Assembly: GCA_964016885.1 (NCBI GenBank)
Contig: OZ024749.1
Location: 45,756,001-45,820,000, forward strand
Length of the DNA stretch: 64,000 bases
Origin: Eledone cirrhosa
Taxonomy: Eukaryota
Direction of reading: 5' to 3'
The notes beneath the pieces were generated by a model that was not told the origin of the DNA, made no database searches, and was given only the letters and a program-made list of their open reading frames with translations. This document shows positions 4,373 to 52,285 of the stretch, piece by piece (the first letter of the stretch is position 1; each line of letters starts with the position of its first letter). Made by a program: the position numbers and the translations under genes.

Positions 4373-4937
<565 letters not shown>

Positions 4938-6400: not shown

Positions 6401-6593
6401 TGAAGGAAATGTGGTAAGGAACCAGATGGACTATAACGCACCAAAATACTCAATACTTAGGGTAGTAGAGTGGGTAATAGGAACGAGTAGGACCCTGACG
6501 GCTGCGCTCAATCCGTTTCGACGGCTAATTCTGGACCAGAATAAGCCGTCGAAACGGCTTGAGCTCAGCCATCGGGGTCCTACTCATTCCTAT
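6398..6593 (-). mobile_element. Foldback element family B, copy 2
   Basis: Tail 6398-6476 plus palindrome 6477-6593; (TA)n on both sides. Confidence 0.85.
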
Positions 6594-8780: not shown

Positions 8781-11194
8781 CATTGTAACTGCAAGCATCA
8801 TTTGCCGATGCAATTTTTCTATGAATATGCACTATACTTTCTGAAAACGCTTCTTCTCTCACGGCTGAGCTTATCTTCAATGGGAAGACATTTCAACATC
8901 ATTATCGAAAGTCGAAACAAAATATTTATTTGTTTTCTAACTTGTTACATCTCTCTTTCTCTTTCTGTCTGTTTTGCTTCTCGCTACCTTTGATTCTTTA
9001 ACTTTCCTCCTCTCTCTCTCTATAGCAGACTTACATTTTCTTGCTGTTTCATTTTACTATCTTCTTTCACTTTTCACAAATCGGATGCGCTACTTACAAA
9101 GTTTTATTTGCTATATTTTGATATATTGTGCATTAAAAACATTATATTTTCATATGTGGATTCAAAAAAGTTTGATTACGATTTCTTTTTGCAATTCCAC
9201 ACTATATGATGTAATAAATAAGTTTTATCGTGTCTAATAGTTCAATGTGATTTAGATAAATATGTACTATTGTTAGGAATGAGCGCGAGTTTACAAATAC
9301 AAGAATGCACTATATATAATCTAGTTCACATAATCACTGTCGATATACATACATTAACAGAGAGGGAGAGAGAAAGAGAAGAAATGCACGAGGTGCTTTA
9401 TTATATAAGTGGTGTTTTATTTCAAAGTTACATAAAGTTAGTTTCAAAACGTCTGTTTGGTGTAAAGTTCTTCGCTGCATACCGATGAAAAAAAAATGAA
9501 ATCCTGAGGCAAACGATATGAAAATTGACTTTATTTTTTTCCTGATAACAATGAAAGGAAGCAAATGCCTGTAGTTTGGAGCCATGTCGTAGGTGATGTA
9601 ACGTGGTGCTAACATCTCTAATAGTTTATTGTATTCATTTACTTATTCGTCTAACAGTCGATAATGAAGATGATGATCATAATGATGATGAGGGTGTTAA
9701 TGATGATGATGATGACGATGACGATGATAATGATAGTGATTGTTTTAGTTTGGTGCTGGTGGATTGGCAGATCGGGTGAGGAAGATTTTGCCGTTGGTGA
9801 TGTGGATGATAGTGATGATGATGATGATGACGTTGATGATTGTTTTCAGTTTTAAAGCGATAATTTTTGCAGTATAACAATGAAGTAGTTGATGATCATG
9901 ATGATGACAAAACCCACCATGTTTCCACCAGATACTATTCTCTTAGTTCAGAAACTATGCGAATACAATATAATATTTTGCGATTATTAATGCTGCAGAC
10001 ATAACTGACAAAGAAAATTGCAAAATACGAACAAATTCGTTCGTATATTAATTGATAGTGATGTGTAAAAGAGAAGGAAGCATCTACCTACAATCTCAAT
10101 CGGATTATGGTTCTTAGTTAACAAAAATTACTCACACATGACTTTATTCATTAAGAGATTCAGAGAACTTATTGTGTGTAAACTATGACATAGTTGTAAA
10201 CAATGCAAATTGTGTTGAAACAAATAGAATCACTATAAGTGTGGGTGGCGGATTACATTCGTCAGTTTGGTCATCATTTCATACAGTTAATATGTGATTG
10301 TAGATTGTTTATAATTACTGGACAATGGTGCATCGAAATATTTCATTTTTGTGCTACATGCACAAAATCTGCATCGTATTAGTCTGTTTTCGATTATTTG
10401 CTGGAATGAAGAATTAAAAGATTTTGGCTTTGAAATTATTGTTATTATTATGATACCATAGGAATATTCAACAAAAGTCTTCAAATGACTTTGACTGATT
10501 AATTAAAAATGTTACTTAGCAATTGCGTTATTTTACGCTTATGTCATTATTAATTAAGGACAATTTCTTACGTGCATTTCTTTAAATATTTAGATAGTTT
10601 TTAAATGTTAAGAAGATTGAAAACATTTGACATGAACTCACATAATTGTGTGAGATTGTATTCTCAATTGAATTATCTGGGGTGGATGATACGTTCGTGT
10701 TTGTAAACTATGTTTTAGATTGAAATTCCATCAGGATCAATTTGACATTCAATTTCATATCTAATAGTGTTTTACTGAAATTTATCTAAATTATATAGAC
10801 CCAATCCAAATATTTGGCTTGTGGGGTTATACTAAATAAATAAATTACGTAAATTATTTACATGCAGTTTTGTAAGTATTCTTCTGTAAATTCCGAATAA
10901 AAAATTGTTTGACACCGTCGCGTATAAAATGTTTTAATATTCCTCTATGTTGCTTTGAAATATATTTACTAAATATCAGCAATTTTCTGGATTTTCAAAC
11001 AGAGAAATATAATATAGAATAGTATTCTGAGTGACATGAGGTTCGTGTGTTCAAACATTAGTTTTAAACAACATTAACTATTGAATGAAAGGCATAATTG
11101 ACATCGTGGATAGGTTAGATCTGTTTTACGCTTAAAAAAAACAAACCTGTGACTCAGTATCAATATTGGAAAGGTGTAATCGATATATTTAATA

Positions 11195-11380
11195 ATAATT
11201 GTTTCTACATTCGGCACAAGGCCAGCAATTCACCAGTACATTACTGGTACTTAATTTATCGACCTCGTAAGGATGAAAGGCAAAGTTAACCTTGGCGGGA
11301 TTTGAACTCAGATCGTAAAGGGACGTAACTATGCTGTAAAGCATGTCCGACCCTCTACCAATTCTGCCAATCCACCGCCC
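11195..11380 (-). mobile_element. tRNA-derived SINE, full length
   Basis: A-box-like TGGCAGAATTGG, B box GAGTTCAAATCC, core GCCTTTCATCCTTACGAGGTCGATAAA, tail GTAGAAACAATTAT. Confidence 0.9.
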
Positions 11381-12038
11381 TGTATATTTAACATAATAAT
11401 ATGTGGTTAAGAAGATATACAAAATTGTGCATCAAAATAGAAATAAAATGTATATTACATGATATGTTCATATATCCCGCCTCGCCCTTTAGATTTGACT
11501 ATAGAAATGTGAGAGGTGGTAGAACAATTCGGATATCGCTGTAGTTTCTTGTTTTAATGTTTCAGAAGACACTGTTCTTCTTTCTACTAGATTTGTGGAA
11601 ATGACTACTTGATTTGCTTCCCCTCACTATGCTTTACTTATTAAATAGTATTGTCCTTACTTGGTAATATTGAATAGCAGTTTGTACTTATTTATTGATG
11701 TATTTATTTAATTGTTTATTGAATTATGGTTAAGTGGGAAAAGTGACTAGAGATGGAAATAATTGTCTATCTAATGCTATCAAATGACTAACAATGTATT
11801 AAAATGAATTCTATCTCTACCCATCTTATTCTCTATTATGCAGGGAAAACAGAACTATATTATTCTATTTCTTATTTTCTAAAGAAGGGAGTATGAATCG
11901 TCGGAAATATGATTCCTAAAACATAGCTGATTGTTTTTATATTCCATCGACATACAGCAATATAGTTAGCAAGATTAATGCCAGATATGAACTCAGAACC
12001 CATTGATACCCTAACAGAGTTCACTGGCTTTCTGTTTA

Positions 12039-13988: not shown

Positions 13989-13991
<3 letters not shown>

Positions 13992-14177
13992 GGAAAATGT
14001 TTAACCCCGACCGCAGAGCTGAAGCCGTTGCAACGGCTATAGTCCAGAAATAGCCCTCGAAACGGCTTGAGCTCTGCCGTCGGGGTTAAACATTTTCCTA
14101 TTACCGACTCTACTACTCTAAGTATTGAGTACTCTGGTACGTTATGGACCATCTGGTTCCTTACCACACTTCCTTCG

Positions 14178-14180
<3 letters not shown>
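13989..14180 (+). mobile_element. Foldback element family B, copy 3
   Basis: Palindrome 13989-14101 plus tail 14102-14180; (TA)n on both sides. Confidence 0.85.
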
Positions 14181-14252
<72 letters not shown>

Positions 14253-15313
14253 AAGACAGAAACGAAGCGAGAAACAGAGAAACAGGGGTGAGAGTGAGAT
14301 CATTCACATTTTGTTTCTTATCTATGATATGTTTTGTTCTTGAAATGATTAATCTTTCTTAAACACTTTAATCCAGGGACAACACCAGAATCATCTCTGT
14401 AAACATATCGTGGACTTTAAGTTTCAAATCTTACAATAGCTGCCATCTATGAGAGATAACAAGAAAATTTGATAACATAAAAATGAATAATAATAAAAAA
14501 AATTAATTTGAATTGTAAATATAAATCGAAGCAGTGTATTGATAAAACTGGCTCGATCTATGTCAAATAACAGAGACTGTATCACTTACAAGTAATGTGG
14601 TAGTAAATCATAGAGAATTTCTTGTTAGAGAAAAGACAGAGAAATAAGAATATAGTATGCATGTGAATAGAATTAAAAGAAGAAGATGCTGGAGCTGGTG
14701 TAGAAATACGCTAGTTTCACCATTCGGACCTCGCTGGAATATATACATATATATAAATATCACAACTTCATTATTTGAAATTCGATTTGGTGCAAATCCT
14801 TAACTATGGATATGGAACTTGATTATGACAGAAAGAATACGATTGCGAAATCATGCGGCCGTAATAGGGTCCCTCCGCAGGGTCTATGGAATAAAGTTAC
14901 TCAATGGATTGTATAGATCGCAGATCAAGTATTGAGTTTAGGTAGAGCCGCTACTTCTCTGAATTTAGAGATCTCAGCTTCGATATTACTAATATGTGAT
15001 CAAAATCTCTAAAGTAACTCAGATGTAGACCCGAACAAGTTTGTTGGAGTATATATATATATCAGCTCGGTTGGTCTCGCTTGGCAATCCAGCATGAACC
15101 AATTGGGAAAAGCTGCTTCTGAGAGAAGATGCTAGGAAGTGATGCTATGGCATAATGAACACACACACACATACACCCACACACACACACATACATACAT
15201 ATATATATATACAGGGATTGTAAAGTGAAGTTACTGTAGGTTCACTCAAGTGTGGACTCGATGTTTAGATTCACGTCAGTGGCGAGCTGTAGAACTAAGC
15301 AGCGTGTAATATA

Positions 15314-15501
15314 CTTGTTTCTACTAATGGCACATGGCCAGCAATTACCCAGTACATTACTGGTTCTTTATTTTATCAACCCCGTAAGAATGAAAGGCAA
15401 AGTTAACCTCAGCGGGATTTGAACTCAGAATGGCAAGGGCCGTAACTCTATGCGTCAAAGCATGGCGTCCCTCCCTCTACCGATACTGCCAATTCACCGC
15501 T
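15314..15501 (-). mobile_element. tRNA-derived SINE with 13-bp TSD
   Basis: Same family; TSD AGCGTGTAATATA at 15301-15313 and 15503-15515. Confidence 0.9.
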
Positions 15502-15871
15502 AAGCGTGTAATATAATAATAAAATTATATATATATATATACATATGTATATATATATATATATATGCGTGTGTGTATATGTGTGTGTGTATGTGTGTGT
15601 GTGTATGCGCAGCTGTCTGACTGCACGTATGTGGTGGATTTAAATGAGAAAAAAGAGAAAAGTAAGAAAGTAGACAGGAAGTAAAATAGGTAACGAAAGA
15701 TGAAAAAATACGAAGAGTTTTAAAAAGATTAGAACATATAAAACGAGATTTAGTGTGACAGAGGATATATGGATATTTAAATTGATATGTCGATAAATAG
15801 AACGATTTATATTAAGAGGATAAAACGATTGTAATATATATGTTTGCACACACACACACACATGTATATAT

Positions 15872-19209: not shown

Positions 19210-20452
19210 ATATATACATACATATATACATACATATATACATACACACACTCACAGACATATGTAAACATACGCATAAATATATACATACATATTATAG
19301 CTATACATACAAGCAGGCACACGCATTTAGTCACATATACCATTATATTTATTTAAAATGAATAGGTGCGTGTGCGTGTTTGCAAGGCTTCGTTTTTGTT
19401 AGTGAGCAGACATAGATTTAGTTACATATACACTGTTTTAGACTGCAAGTTATGTGCACGTAATCACCTCACTGCTGATGTTTTATGAGAGATTCCACAA
19501 GAAAAAGATATATACAACTCGAATATCAGTTGCATAACTCCAGCTGTATCCTCTTCAATCCACGGCGTGATGTAGCAATGTCTTGTTTCATTCATGTAAT
19601 GAGTCTTTTATCTTCATCTCGTCGACATCAAGTTGACTTCGTGTCATTCACAAAATACCAAACGCTCTGCTGGTCATTTTACCTTTCAATGGCAATGTCT
19701 CTTCTTCATATTGTTTTTAACTCTTGATGAAAAAAGAAAACAAAAAAAAAATTGAAAAGAAAAAGGGCAAAAAGCGTTTGACAATAGATGAACTCAAATG
19801 AAATTCTTAACAGTTAAAAAAAAGTATTTAAATTTAGTTTTTGTGATTTTCATGTTTAACATTTTTATCATTTATTTATTGAATTTAATTAAACTTTATA
19901 TCTTTTTTTAGAAAGGCTATATATCTATTGTATTTCATTTTATAATTAATTAATTTATCATCATTATTTTTATTATCTTTATTATTGTTATTGTTGGTGT
20001 TTTTGTTATTATTATTTCTTTTTTAAATTTATTTATTAAAAAAAAACTTCTCATTTGTGAGAAGTTAAAACTTTTCTGTCTTCAATATTCGCTATTGTAA
20101 AAGTAAAGTACGTTTCTCTGTGCATGTTTCTGAAAAACTAAAAGTGGAAAAAAAGTTATTTCAGTTGTCATGTAATCAAAATTAGTTTAGATAAATAAAT
20201 TTCTTTTCATAACATGAACATTTTACTTCAGTTAAGTTAATATAAAATTATATCTGATATCATATCGTAACGATCATTATATAAAGCTGACTTCATATAG
20301 ATGTACTCATCTTAATTTATAATTTAGAAGATGGATTATTGATATATGAAAAAAAAAAAAAAATCTGGATTGATAGATGTACGAATATGACGATGATTAT
20401 TTGGCAGAATCACTAGCTCATCGGAGAAAATGTTATTATTTCCAAGTTAAAA

Positions 20453-20644
20453 GGGCGGTGGATTGACAGTATCGGTGGAGGGTCAGACGCCATGCTTTCT
20501 AGCATAGAATTACGGCTTTTACGGTCTGAGTTCAAATTCCGCCGAGGTTCACATTGCTATTCATCCGTACGGATTCGATAAAATAAAGTACCAGTAATGT
20601 GCTGGGTAATTGCTAGCCTTGTGCAAAAAAGTAGAAACAATTAT
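20453..20644 (+). mobile_element. tRNA-derived SINE (first unit of a tandem duplication)
   Basis: Same family. Confidence 0.9.
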
Positions 20645-20763
20645 TTATACGTTGAAATCACACCGAGGTTAACTTTGCCCCTCATTCATCAGGGTCGTTG
20701 AAATAAAGGAAGAATGATAACAATGTTGTCTTCCATTAGTACTGCTTTCCGTTCATTATAGAA

Positions 20764-20951
20764 GGTGGATTGGCAGTATCGTTAGAGGGTCTAACGCCAT
20801 GCTTTGCATCACAGAGTTGCGGCCCTTTACAGTCTAAGTTGAAATCCCACCGAGATTAACTTTAACTTTTATCAATATGGGGTCGATAAATAAAGTACCA
20901 GTAATGCACTGGAGTAATTGCTGGCCTTGTGCCAAAAGTAGAAACAATTAT
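20764..20951 (+). mobile_element. tRNA-derived SINE (second unit of a tandem duplication)
   Basis: Same family; the downstream ~120-bp flank is duplicated with the previous copy. Confidence 0.9.
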
Positions 20952-21260
20952 TTATACGTTGAAATCACACCGAGGTTAACTTTACCTCTCATTCTTTCTG
21001 GGTCGTTAAAATAAAGGAAGAATAATTAAGAAGTTGTCTCCCCTAGTAATGTTTTCCGTTCATTATAGAAAGACAAATAGTGTTTCATATTATATTTAAA
21101 CAAACGTGATTTGAAATGTATCGAATTATCGATTTGATGCATTGAGTGAATATGAATGTCGTAGAAGTGTAAGGTACTGAAACGCAGAAATACCTGTAAA
21201 ATAATAAGTTACTATAATACAGAAAATATAACATAGAAAACATTCCTCATCTCTCCCTAC

Positions 21261-32412: not shown

Positions 32413-33246
<834 letters not shown>

Positions 33247-33256
33247 ACAAAAGTTA

Positions 33257-33600
33257 CAAGCCGTTAAAGTTACAAGCTTTATAAAGCCCTTACACATGTT
33301 TCGCCCAAGGTGGCAGGTCTGAGGCAGATACTAAGGCAACGTTTTTAATGAAATACACTACACGGGTAGAATAATACTTTAACATCAGAATGCATATTAC
33401 ATATTGGTCGAAACATGTGTAAGAGCTTTAGAAAGATATGATTTAACGGCTTGCAAATCTTTCATTATTCATTTTGCCAATCACCGCTCTGCTTATCTTT
33501 GTACACTAAATATTAACCTTCTCTAATATTTAACTCTGATAAACCAAGCATCGAGCACTTATGCACCCACTTTTGGCATGTAATACTCTGTATCAAATCT
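33257..33600 (+). mobile_element. Older foldback element (family I) with hammerhead 3' half
   Basis: Degenerate arms 33257-33308 and 33404-33453 containing CGAAACATGTGTA; tail with TCGAGCACTT at 33551-33560. Right boundary approximate. Confidence 0.6.
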
Positions 33601-48495: not shown

Positions 48496-48690
48496 TAACG
48501 AAGGAAATGTGGTAAGGAACCAGGTGGACCATAACGCACCAAAGTAGTCAATACTTAGGGTAGTAGAGTGGGTAATAGGAACGAGTAGGACGCCGACGGG
48601 TGAGCTCAGGCCGTTTCGACGGCTAATTCCGTCCAGAATTAGCCGTCGAAACGGCCTGAGCTCAGCCGTCGGGGTCCTACCCGTTCCTAT
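48496..48690 (-). mobile_element. Foldback element family B, copy 5
   Basis: Tail 48496-48574 plus palindrome 48575-48690 containing GAAACGGCCTGAGCTCAGCCGTC; (TA)n on both sides. Confidence 0.85.
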
Positions 48691-49953: not shown

Positions 49954-50357
49954 TATATATATTTAGACAAATAGTCGAGACCAGTAGAGATCGACAAAAT
50001 AACAAAGGAGAGTCGTATAGATGGAAGAATATAAAGAAAGAAATAAAGAGACGATACAAAAAATTCTCTCACGTACCTTTTCACTCACGGAAATATGGCG
50101 ACTCCTTGTCCTGTAGACATATTGTATATTACATTGTAAACATTTGTCATATTGTTTGTCGTTCATTTTGTTGTTGTTATTTCGTTTTTGTTACTGTGCT
50201 CATGCTTTCTGTTGTGTTTACTTTATATACCAGTAAATCTCTTATATATCTCGTTGTTGTTGTTGTCTACGTTCTCGTTGGCTTTGTTGTCTACGCTTTC
50301 CTGGTTCCAAAAATGTTGATCCTGCTGATTCTGTAGCTCCCCAGACAATTGGTAATA

Positions 50358-50550
50358 ATAATTGTTTCTACTGTTGGCACAAGCCCCGCAATTACTCCAG
50401 CAGTGTATTACTGGTACTTTATTTTATTGACCTCGTAAGGATGAAAGGCGTAGATGACCTCGGCGTGATTTGAACTCAGATCATAAACGGCCGTAACTCT
50501 ATGCTGCAAAGCATGGCATCTGATCCTCTATCGATACTCCCAATCCACCG
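50358..50550 (-). mobile_element. tRNA-derived SINE (tandem pair, left)
   Basis: Same family; AATTGGTAA(T/C)AATAATTG on both sides. Confidence 0.88.
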
Positions 50551-50564
50551 TTAAATTGGTAACA

Positions 50565-50747
50565 ATAATTGTTTCTACTTTTAGCACAAGGCCAGTAATT
50601 ATCCCAGTGTATTACTGGTACTTTATTTTATTGACCCCGTAAGGATGAAAGGCAAAGTTAACCTCGGCGGGATTTGAACTCAGAATGGAAAGGTTCGTAA
50701 CTCTATGCGTCAAAGCATGGCGTCCGACCCTCTAACGATACTGCCAA
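50565..50747 (-). mobile_element. tRNA-derived SINE (tandem pair, right)
   Basis: Same family. Confidence 0.88.
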
Positions 50748-51157
50748 GAGTTTGATGTCAGTGATGATGGTGAGGATGACATTTATGATTTTAATGACTA
50801 TGGTCGTTTTGTAGTGTTGCTGTTGATGATGGTAATGATAATAATGCTTGTGAGTATGCAGAGGCGGAAATGGAAGGAGGGGGGCAAAGAACGAATATTG
50901 TTTGATGTTTGCAATAGTGCTACATGTTTGAAATTGGTTTGGGTTTTTTTTGTGTGTAGTTGTGTATTTTGACAGAAATTTTAAATATGCTTCAATTTCC
51001 GATTACACATAACCACCATATTCAACGGCATCTTTATTATCACCATTATTAATTTGATTTGTGGAAGTATTCAAACAACCAGATAACTGCACACATACAT
51101 ACACACAACCACATTCACTCACACAAAAGCTCATATATCTCTCTCTCTATATATATA

Positions 51158-51438
51158 GTAAGAATATTTTTCGAAACAGCTAGCAGGTTTTAAATTATTA
51201 TAAATGTAAGCTATCGCGGTATTTTGACTAAAGAAATAAACAAAATTATTTAGCCTGATAGTGGGGTTAAGAACCCTCGGAGAAATGGAAGAAGATGAGT
51301 ATTGACGTATATGGGAGTCGAACCCACATATTTGGTTATCCAGACCACTGTGCTACAATTTACACCAACACATCACCTGTCTTTTTCCATTCAATGTAAG
51401 GTCAAGTAAGAATATTTTTCGAAACAGCGAGCGGGTTT
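51158..51438 (-). mobile_element. Family D element, partial-tandem form with ~33-bp direct terminal repeats and an internal tRNA-like unit
   Basis: GTAAGAATATTTTTCGAAACAGC(T/G)AGC(A/G)GGTTT at 51158-51190 and 51406-51438 (period 248); TA repeats on both flanks. Confidence 0.8.
51303..51374 (-). tRNA. tRNA-like cloverleaf (72 nt; probably element-borne or pseudo, loop reads GGA but the variable arm is short)
   Basis: GATGTGT-TG-GTGT(AAATTGTA)GCAC-A-GTGGT(CTGGATA)ACCAA-ATAT-GTGGG(TTCGACT)CCCAT-ATACGTC-A. All four stems pair with canonical spacing (one mismatch in the anticodon stem); B box GGTTCGACTCC. Confidence 0.7.
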
Positions 51439-51441
51439 ATA

Positions 51442-51531
<90 letters not shown>

Positions 51532-51546
51532 CATATATATATATAC

Positions 51547-51652
<106 letters not shown>

Positions 51653-52285
51653 GATATAAATATTTATATATATGGAGTGTGTGCGTATGTGTGCCTCTGT
51701 CCTCTAATAAACGCACTCCCATATATACATATAAACACACACTTATAAATAAATATATTCTTAGATACAATGAGAAAATTATATATAAGTAAATTGATAT
51801 GAAGATATACATACGGATATATATTTTATATCATTGTGTTTCAGTAGGTGCTTAAACTTATTGTTTGATTGTGTACAGAAATGCGTATGTAGAAATGTTT
51901 GTTTATATAATCCCCTAAAGCAAGCATGCTTTGAAGATTTTTGCAATGCACCTGTAGAATACACCTGTAAATGCTTGTGCCTGGTGGGGTTACAGAAAAT
52001 AATAAAGGTGAATACTTGATTGTGTTGTAAATGTATTGTTATCCGCCACATATTTATAGGCGTATCTTAATACTATATCTATTTGCTTTCTAATTTGCTA
52101 ACCCTTATCTTTTATAGAGATCAACATGCGGTACATCTCTCCTCTCATAGTTTTCTATCACACATTCACTTTCTTGGCTTCTGTCTTTCTCTCTCTCGCT
52201 TTATCTTGCTTTTGCTCTGTCTCTTTTTTCTCTATCCTTCTTTCTCTTCTGTATAACATGTTACTGTTATTTTAAGTATATATAT

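Follow-up and report, generated by a model that had tools for sequence, protein, structure and literature searches.

Animal non-LTR retrozymes are non-coding tandem units of a few hundred bases, which occur as monomers, dimers and arrays, are linked to Penelope-like elements (PLEs) and are defined by a type I hammerhead ribozyme in each unit (PMC7229834; 10.64898/2026.07.22.740005). The family considered here is organized in a similar manner, but has a tRNA cloverleaf instead of the hammerhead. PLEs are characterized by partial tandems, an inverted truncated copy, a tail of 30–40 bp at one end only and (TA)n targets (Craig et al., 2021, PMC8557442), and the tail has been described as the interval between two internal start sites, with both DNA strands being extended (Frangieh et al., 2024, PMC11167929). 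The Naiad and Neptune elements, which target (TA)n, and non-autonomous Chlamys elements (e.g., MRC1) are like this family in their partial tandems, inverted truncated arm and 30–40 bp tail, and Naiads likewise have no canonical hammerhead. Unlike PLEs, the family has no ORF, and its internal tRNA and tRNA-linked truncation hotspot are absent from the PLE descriptions in the excerpts available (PMC8557442, PMC11167929).

Transfer RNA-derived SINEs, including the MESC, V and CORE families of molluscs and the SINEs of cephalopods, are also short and non-coding, and have A and B boxes within a tRNA-like portion (Matetovici et al., 2016, PMC4758252); an octopus repeat study leaves most SINE families unclassified (PMC13282606). 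In such SINEs (PMC4758252), the tRNA is the 5' head and the ends are of LINE type with target-site duplications, whereas in this family the tRNA is internal, the ends are of PLE type and a T5 run follows behind the tRNA. A further likeness is to the plus-strand strong stop of retroviruses, where reverse transcription of a tRNA, begun at its 3' end, halts at methylated A58 (m1A58), a modification that stops the retroviral enzyme in vitro (Fukuda et al., 2021, PMC8599865) and that, according to another report, is installed on precursor tRNAs (10.64898/2026.05.17.725798). In the retroviral case the tRNA serves as primer and the virus benefits from the stop (PMC8599865); here, on the other hand, the tRNA lies in the template and the stop is deduced from genomic ends only.

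The element was examined in a 64,000-nucleotide stretch of Eledone cirrhosa DNA, the whole of which is referred to as the window (Table 1). Two 33-bp stretches, of which the first is 51158-51190 and the second begins 248 bp further on at 51406, are identical at 31 of 33 positions. A preliminary description had taken them for direct terminal repeats of a 248-bp unit; the two stretches are there, but the second is the start of a truncated tandem unit, and the true unit is 272 bp, the period of an array of about ten units elsewhere in the genome. A 24-bp deletion between 51394 and 51395, private to the window copy, produces the apparent 248 bp, and the locus 51158-51438 is one 272-bp unit minus 24 bp, plus 33 bp of the next unit (a partial tandem). 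The reported TA context is present on both sides. Other family copies have their far (truncated) end at any position in the unit, and what recurs among them is a tail of about 36 bp, at one end only; it is this tail that lies at 33215-33246, which had been put forward as evidence of a recurrent terminal repeat. By analogy with the meaning given to the PLE tail in PMC11167929, the tail would represent the RNA 3' end together with the region in which reverse transcription starts. The second family copy in the window (approximately 32981-33246) is a foldback, as had been recognized; its centre, at 33097-33100, falls within the tRNA, roughly 10 nt from the 3' end. Positions in the unit are given below as u coordinates, which run along the plus strand of the D1 unit from 51158 (u1) and place tRNA position 73 at u146, A58 at u161 and G1 at u217.

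Table 1. Features of the two family copies in the window (window coordinates).
Feature	Coordinates	Strand	Basis
(TC)n/(TA)n target at fixed end	51138-51157	.	sequence
PLE-type tail, about 36 bp, from long fixed end (u1 = 51158) to short fixed end (u35-37)	51158-51193	-	origin histogram; long and short ends in 44/44 foldbacks
Body: two small hairpins and one helix arm pairing with the tail; without hammerhead core	51194-51283	-	folds, motif scan, Rfam on array units
tRNA trailer; pairs with leader and lengthens acceptor stem by about 18 bp; T5 run of the family, interrupted here	51284-51302	-	folds
72-nt tRNA-like cloverleaf, anticodon GGA; A-box-like segment about 51355-51367, B box 51315-51323, A58 51318	51303-51374	-	
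Family-wide truncation hotspot, u147-163 (tRNA positions 72-56); window copy read through	51304-51320	-	
Leader upstream of tRNA, shortened from the family's 55 bp to 31 bp by the 24-bp deletion	51375-51405	-	
Second tandem unit, first 33 bp, truncated (apparent terminal repeat)	51406-51438	-	
(TA)n target at truncated end	51439-51673	.	
Second insertion, short arm of foldback, about u37-156, without tail, after (AT)n 32889-32982	32981-33100	-	
Long arm of second insertion, u156 to u1, tail included; meets the short arm at the hotspot	33097-33246	+	

Microsatellites dominated the output of a repeat search over the whole window, and several other repeats were seen there. For instance, another inverted-repeat element (33251-33460) directly adjoins the long end of the second copy, and foldbacks of another family, with a hammerhead-like core by eye, lie on (TA)n at 32514-32692, 6402-6590, 48498-48690, 13989-14178 and 4376-4572. 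A very frequent repeat of about 190 bp has at least a dozen copies in the window (11171-11398, 15300-15503, 20425-21070, 50347-50747 and others), some of them tandem or inverted.

A search of the 3.0-Gb genome with the element gave 1,960 candidates, of which 40 were scored, the ten-unit array with its 272-bp period among them; exact probes for the body and the tRNA core matched 6,213 and 1,364 times genome-wide, respectively, against 0 control matches. Four subfamilies share the same layout, and partial tandems occur among their copies. The D1, D2 and D3 units are 272, 290 and 260 bp long, with a median identity of copies to consensus of 94–97%, and the D4 unit, with 354 probe matches, is 276 bp long with a median of 91%, and is the older. 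The units of the ten-unit array differ from one another, as after DNA-level exchange, and in this array, the longest and a single locus, the T-arm is altered in 9 of 10 tRNA copies, with two recurring variants. In one insertion (L297:1420-1900) the left arm combines a 3' half of D4 type with a D1-like leader, which suggests a template switch between subfamilies. Sequencing runs labelled as other organisms (X4, X5, X7, X8) contain pieces of the family, for which relatives and Eledone cirrhosa DNA are both possible sources.

For the cloverleaf, ARAGORN and Rfam both agree with the preliminary description: the sole ARAGORN tRNA call in the window is 51302-51375 on the minus strand (Ser-GGA), and RF00005 matches 51303-51374 with 48.5 bits (gathering score 29), tRNA being the only Rfam family above its gathering score among the 150 of 197 window matches listed. 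The 72-nt structure does lie within the element, starting 64 bp inside the right end; it had been called intact, but is slightly decayed, with G18 changed and the T5 run after it interrupted. According to folding, the tRNA-sense strand of the family forms a cloverleaf atop a leader-trailer helix (z −2.77 versus −1.41 for the opposite strand). Base pairing is retained at 91%, and subfamilies differ from one another by one-sided swaps; no covariation above that of shuffles was found, and 1 of 33 pairs has a two-sided change. The anticodon is GGA, with GGC in D4 and CGA in some D3-like copies, and the D1-D3 anticodon arm has a G27-A43 mismatch and U37. The conserved anticodon and canonical anticodon arm of a functional tRNA gene are thus both wanting, and the family tRNA, with its GGA, CGA and GGC anticodons, is not a decoder.

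A and B boxes are present in the cloverleaf, and the B box is intact in D1-D3 and broken in D4. A58 also belongs to the B box, so that a Pol III promoter may exist in D1-D3 and be missing from D4. In D1-D3, however, the tRNA is followed at a distance of 9 nt by a T5 run, and a test for depletion of T runs as Pol III terminators was not significant. A source for the tRNA was sought with exact patterns in viral and prokaryote collections, which yielded 0 matches; a weak match to a phage tRNA-Trp (E 0.2, 44/86 nt) is a hint only, and none of the 16 host RF00005 matches (63 scored candidates) resembles the family tRNA. Ten of these 16 belong to a second, unrelated repeat (L214, L216-L224; e.g., G000:C1:420766010-420766082), which has a well-formed internal tRNA-like gene about 305 bp from its fixed end, with leader-trailer pairing, T4 behind it and a variable anticodon, often GGC as in D4. 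The end of that repeat begins with a perfect hairpin, usually on (TA)n; it is longer than 1 kb, contains an internal inverted repeat and is possibly a DNA element. Degenerate tRNA-like genes also occur in arrays (L213, L215; G000:C1:243.65-243.68 Mb), and the anticodon of some of them is CUA.

The ends of the family were mapped in the first 100 of the 6,213 body-probe matches, all on contig C1, together with earlier loci, which merged into 76 loci; places sampled twice were counted once, and near-identical duplicates (L147, L151; L321, L330, L344) were dropped from the comparisons between subfamilies. The fixed ends form one group at u-10 to u3 and another mostly at u35-60, and TA-rich flanks are found at 90 of the 121 fixed ends in this sample. 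Foldbacks account for 44 of the 76 loci, and every one of them pairs a long end with a short end; the same pairing is seen in 30 of 35 D4 foldbacks, in which the tail is longer (about 55 bp). The family therefore shares several features with PLEs: its units form partial tandems (pLTR-like), two-armed insertions carry a tail of 30–40 bp on one side only, 5' truncation is variable and accompanied by inversion, and the target is AT-rich or a microsatellite. Taken together, these sequence features make it very probable that the family is mobilized by PLE machinery.

Autonomous GIY-YIG elements in the same genome end on (TA)n downstream of their ORF, and the fixed ends of the family are therefore read as RNA 3' ends and its RNA as the tRNA-sense strand. 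RNA-editing scars, examined as a marker of strand, showed no bias (A>G 1.24% versus T>C 1.32%). Non-consensus bases are shared by the two arms of an insertion in 191 of 1,285 cases, versus 419 of 8,517 between loci, which is compatible with one template per insertion. Among the 110 D1-D3 arms that cover the probe, 20 reach u266 or beyond and belong to copies exceeding a single unit, for which the template must have been multimeric or circular, or the enzyme must have jumped between templates.

Ninety of these 110 arms reach u147, and 53 of the 90 (approximately 59%) end at u147-163, between the tRNA 3' end and the T-loop, where the ending rate per base is 7.6 times that of the rest. The hotspot ends peak at u155-156 (22 ends), have a shoulder at u159-162 (8 ends) and then drop, with a right edge at u160-162. 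The clustering of truncations that had been sought at the tRNA 3' end is therefore strong on the 3' side, but the ends lie 2–16 nt inside the tRNA, with the peak at positions 63-64. RNase Z, which presumably would cut at u145, had been named as a processing enzyme and fails as the main cause of the truncations: the ends lie off its site, only 6 of 110 arms ending at u144-147, and CCA-bearing genomic copies gave 0 matches.

The hotspot is a property of three subfamilies, with 19 of 36 arms in D1, 9 of 18 in D2 and 25 of 36 in D3, versus 4 of 76 (about 5%) in D4, for which the first 78 of 354 matches were sampled (5 of 80 arms, or 4 of 76 minus three duplicates). D4 has U58 and G59 instead of A58 and C59 (110 of 113 aligned bases at position 58). 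It shares with D1-D3 the acceptor 3' strand, the T-stem and short palindromes; because D4 keeps them, neither palindromes nor T-stem strength alone can account for the hotspot. The contrast holds in long arms (27/45 in D1-D3 versus 3/37 in D4), in short arms (26/45 versus 1/39), in arms without an inverted partner (14/23 versus 1/32) and in asymmetric joins (25/51 versus 3/44). D4 also differs in the D-stem, the anticodon arm and the acceptor 5' strand, and the comparison is of one lineage with three relatives, in which D4 may have another partner enzyme. A second cluster near the tRNA 5' end (u213-227) comprises 13 of 50 arms in a sample picked with the tRNA probe (the first 30 loci and 13 further regions of the 1,364 matches) versus 4 of 27 in the unbiased sample, and is suggestive only. 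At the D4 loci L279-L348, 6 of 62 arms end at u184-185, at the anticodon, a small number noticed post hoc.

These observations probably describe a ribozyme-less tandem element, mobilized by a PLE, whose RNA undergoes tRNA-like handling, so that methylation of A58 or an A58-dependent fold stops reverse transcription. The array, the PLE-type ends and the hotspot contrast support what the preliminary description had proposed, namely a tandem, non-autonomous element with a tRNA mimic, moved by Penelope-type machinery. It is likely that a Penelope-like reverse transcriptase copies units of 260–290 bp from tRNA-sense RNA into (TA)n; by analogy with PLEs, the enzyme would very probably initiate at two internal RNA sites and extend the two DNA strands at the cut, so that a long and a short arm result. 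The stop at the hotspot would probably come from host tRNA-like handling of the D1-D3 RNA, for which the D4 contrast argues, and its leading candidate is m1A58, to which we give slightly less than an even chance. The weakest step is transcription: the A and B boxes of D1-D3 would tentatively form a Pol III promoter, the T5 run would be read through and multi-unit arms would derive from multimeric or circular RNA. Use of RNase P, together with a Pol III promoter, is possible.

A stop at m1A58 predicts a cDNA end at u160, where the cluster has its right edge. The 22 of 53 ends that form the peak (u155-156) lie 4–5 nt short of the base before A58, and trimming must therefore be assumed; the stopped cDNA end would lose a few bases back to nearby microhomologies and then be joined. 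Any scar that read-through may have left at A58 is weak: the base is changed in 8 of 153 read-through passes over all loci, versus 4.1% (p 0.30), and at loci not chosen by similarity in 7 of 88 versus 116 of 3,745 for other A (3.1%, p 0.02), with 3 of the 7 from one locus. Changes in the T-loop are not enriched in read-through (26/616 versus 477/12,815), and in the majority of multi-pass arms the T-loop is intact. The genomic pattern would look no different if an A58-dependent fold, or a cut in the T-arm, took the place of a stop at m1A58.

Such a cut is an improbable explanation, yet the one that fares best among the alternatives to blocked reverse transcription. A nuclease recognizing the tRNA fold would open the T-arm, the template would start there, and the tRNA would replace the hammerhead as processing signal, in keeping with the absence of a hammerhead, with the same dependence on an intact T-loop and with the weak cluster at the tRNA 5' end, where 5 ends at u218 among 50 arms are as RNase P would give. 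Cutting by RNase Z, expected at u145, is opposed by the 6 of 110 arms at u144-147 versus 22 at u155-156 and by the 0 CCA-bearing copies; moreover, of the 27 arms that continue beyond the T-arm, 23 continue beyond the tRNA 5' end as well, and D4 has spread without either cluster.

Somewhat less probable than cutting is a passive role for the tRNA, with the hotspot arising in D1-D3 through amplification of truncated or foldback masters or through a change of partner enzyme. In symmetric foldbacks, the hotspot holds the ends of all 14 arms, and several share one centre, as amplified masters would give, and D4 has amplified without A58 or the B box, in a family whose tRNA has a variable anticodon and no covariation. 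The hotspot is nonetheless present in partnerless arms (14/23) and in asymmetric joins (25/51), and its ends are spread over u147-162, with differing junction sequences, in three subfamilies, all of which speaks against this reading.

It is very improbable that the element is a hammerhead retrozyme whose ribozyme is hidden, scrambled or on the opposite strand, and that its tRNA is incidental. Scrambled hammerheads exist, according to Eckert et al. (PMC10085705), and the D1-D3 plus strand does carry GAAAC, a GUA triplet and CUGA in type-II order. The resulting plus-strand candidate was rejected: its core is wrong, stem I cannot form beside the triplet and its helices need G-U pairs that are valid only on the tRNA-sense strand. 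As the preliminary description had remarked, there is no canonical hammerhead, with CUGANGA absent from both strands of D1-D4 and Rfam finding only tRNA, and no ribozyme at E up to 10, in two array units. The least credible alternative is an ordinary tRNA-derived SINE moved by a LINE and later duplicated at the DNA level, for although the A and B boxes, the 13 of 50 arms ending near the tRNA 5' end and the array units that differ as after DNA-level exchange would suit it, its end anatomy contradicts it, as the copies are not bounded by a start at the tRNA 5' end (4 of 27 arms in the unbiased sample; such a start in most copies had been named as the mark of a plain SINE), a LINE-type tail and target-site duplications, but by paired long and short ends in 44 of 44 two-armed insertions, whose fixed ends sit on (TA)n. 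The copies also have neither a poly(A) nor a simple-repeat tail of their own, and they often exceed one unit, with 20 of 110 arms reaching u266.

Within literature listings and the opening parts of abstracts, no PLE-mobilized element bearing a tRNA and no retroelement truncation linked to m1A58 was found; the family may stand under a generic name in the Octopus vulgaris repeat library (PMC13282606), Repbase or Dfam. Small PLE passengers have been described with hammerheads and SINEs with LINE partners, and this family joins a tRNA-like segment to PLE ends. A broader and rather doubtful reading of the sequences is that they represent a SINE-like class driven by Penelope instead of LINEs, in which the tRNA mimic would replace the hammerhead and give a Pol III promoter, and the A58 mark of a host methyltransferase would be recorded as a stop in thousands of germline insertions. 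If this were true, a tRNA modification would act as a brake on a mobile element and would be readable from DNA alone. D1 versus D4 would serve as a natural control, making germ-line tRNA-like modification of a retroelement RNA, and any limiting effect of it on copying, directly assayable. The A58-dependent stop would also lend independent genomic support to PLE RNA polarity and two-site initiation.

An autonomous PLE with a matching 3' end was not seen in 50 (30 + 20) of the 10,596 candidate GIY-YIG places, and the published 3' ends of Naiad_Obim and Naiad_Ovul do not match the family in a comparison by eye. One lead (L247) turned out to be an inserted D4 copy. With a degenerate tail pattern, for which 13 of the first 30 loci were inspected, all of the matches listed are pieces of the D family. 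Most of the loci L092-L121 belong to an abundant PLE family of autonomous type, which has, by eye, a 3' hammerhead-like core starting with U instead of C; several of its copies have a 40-bp piece set off from the end by a TA tract, also by eye.
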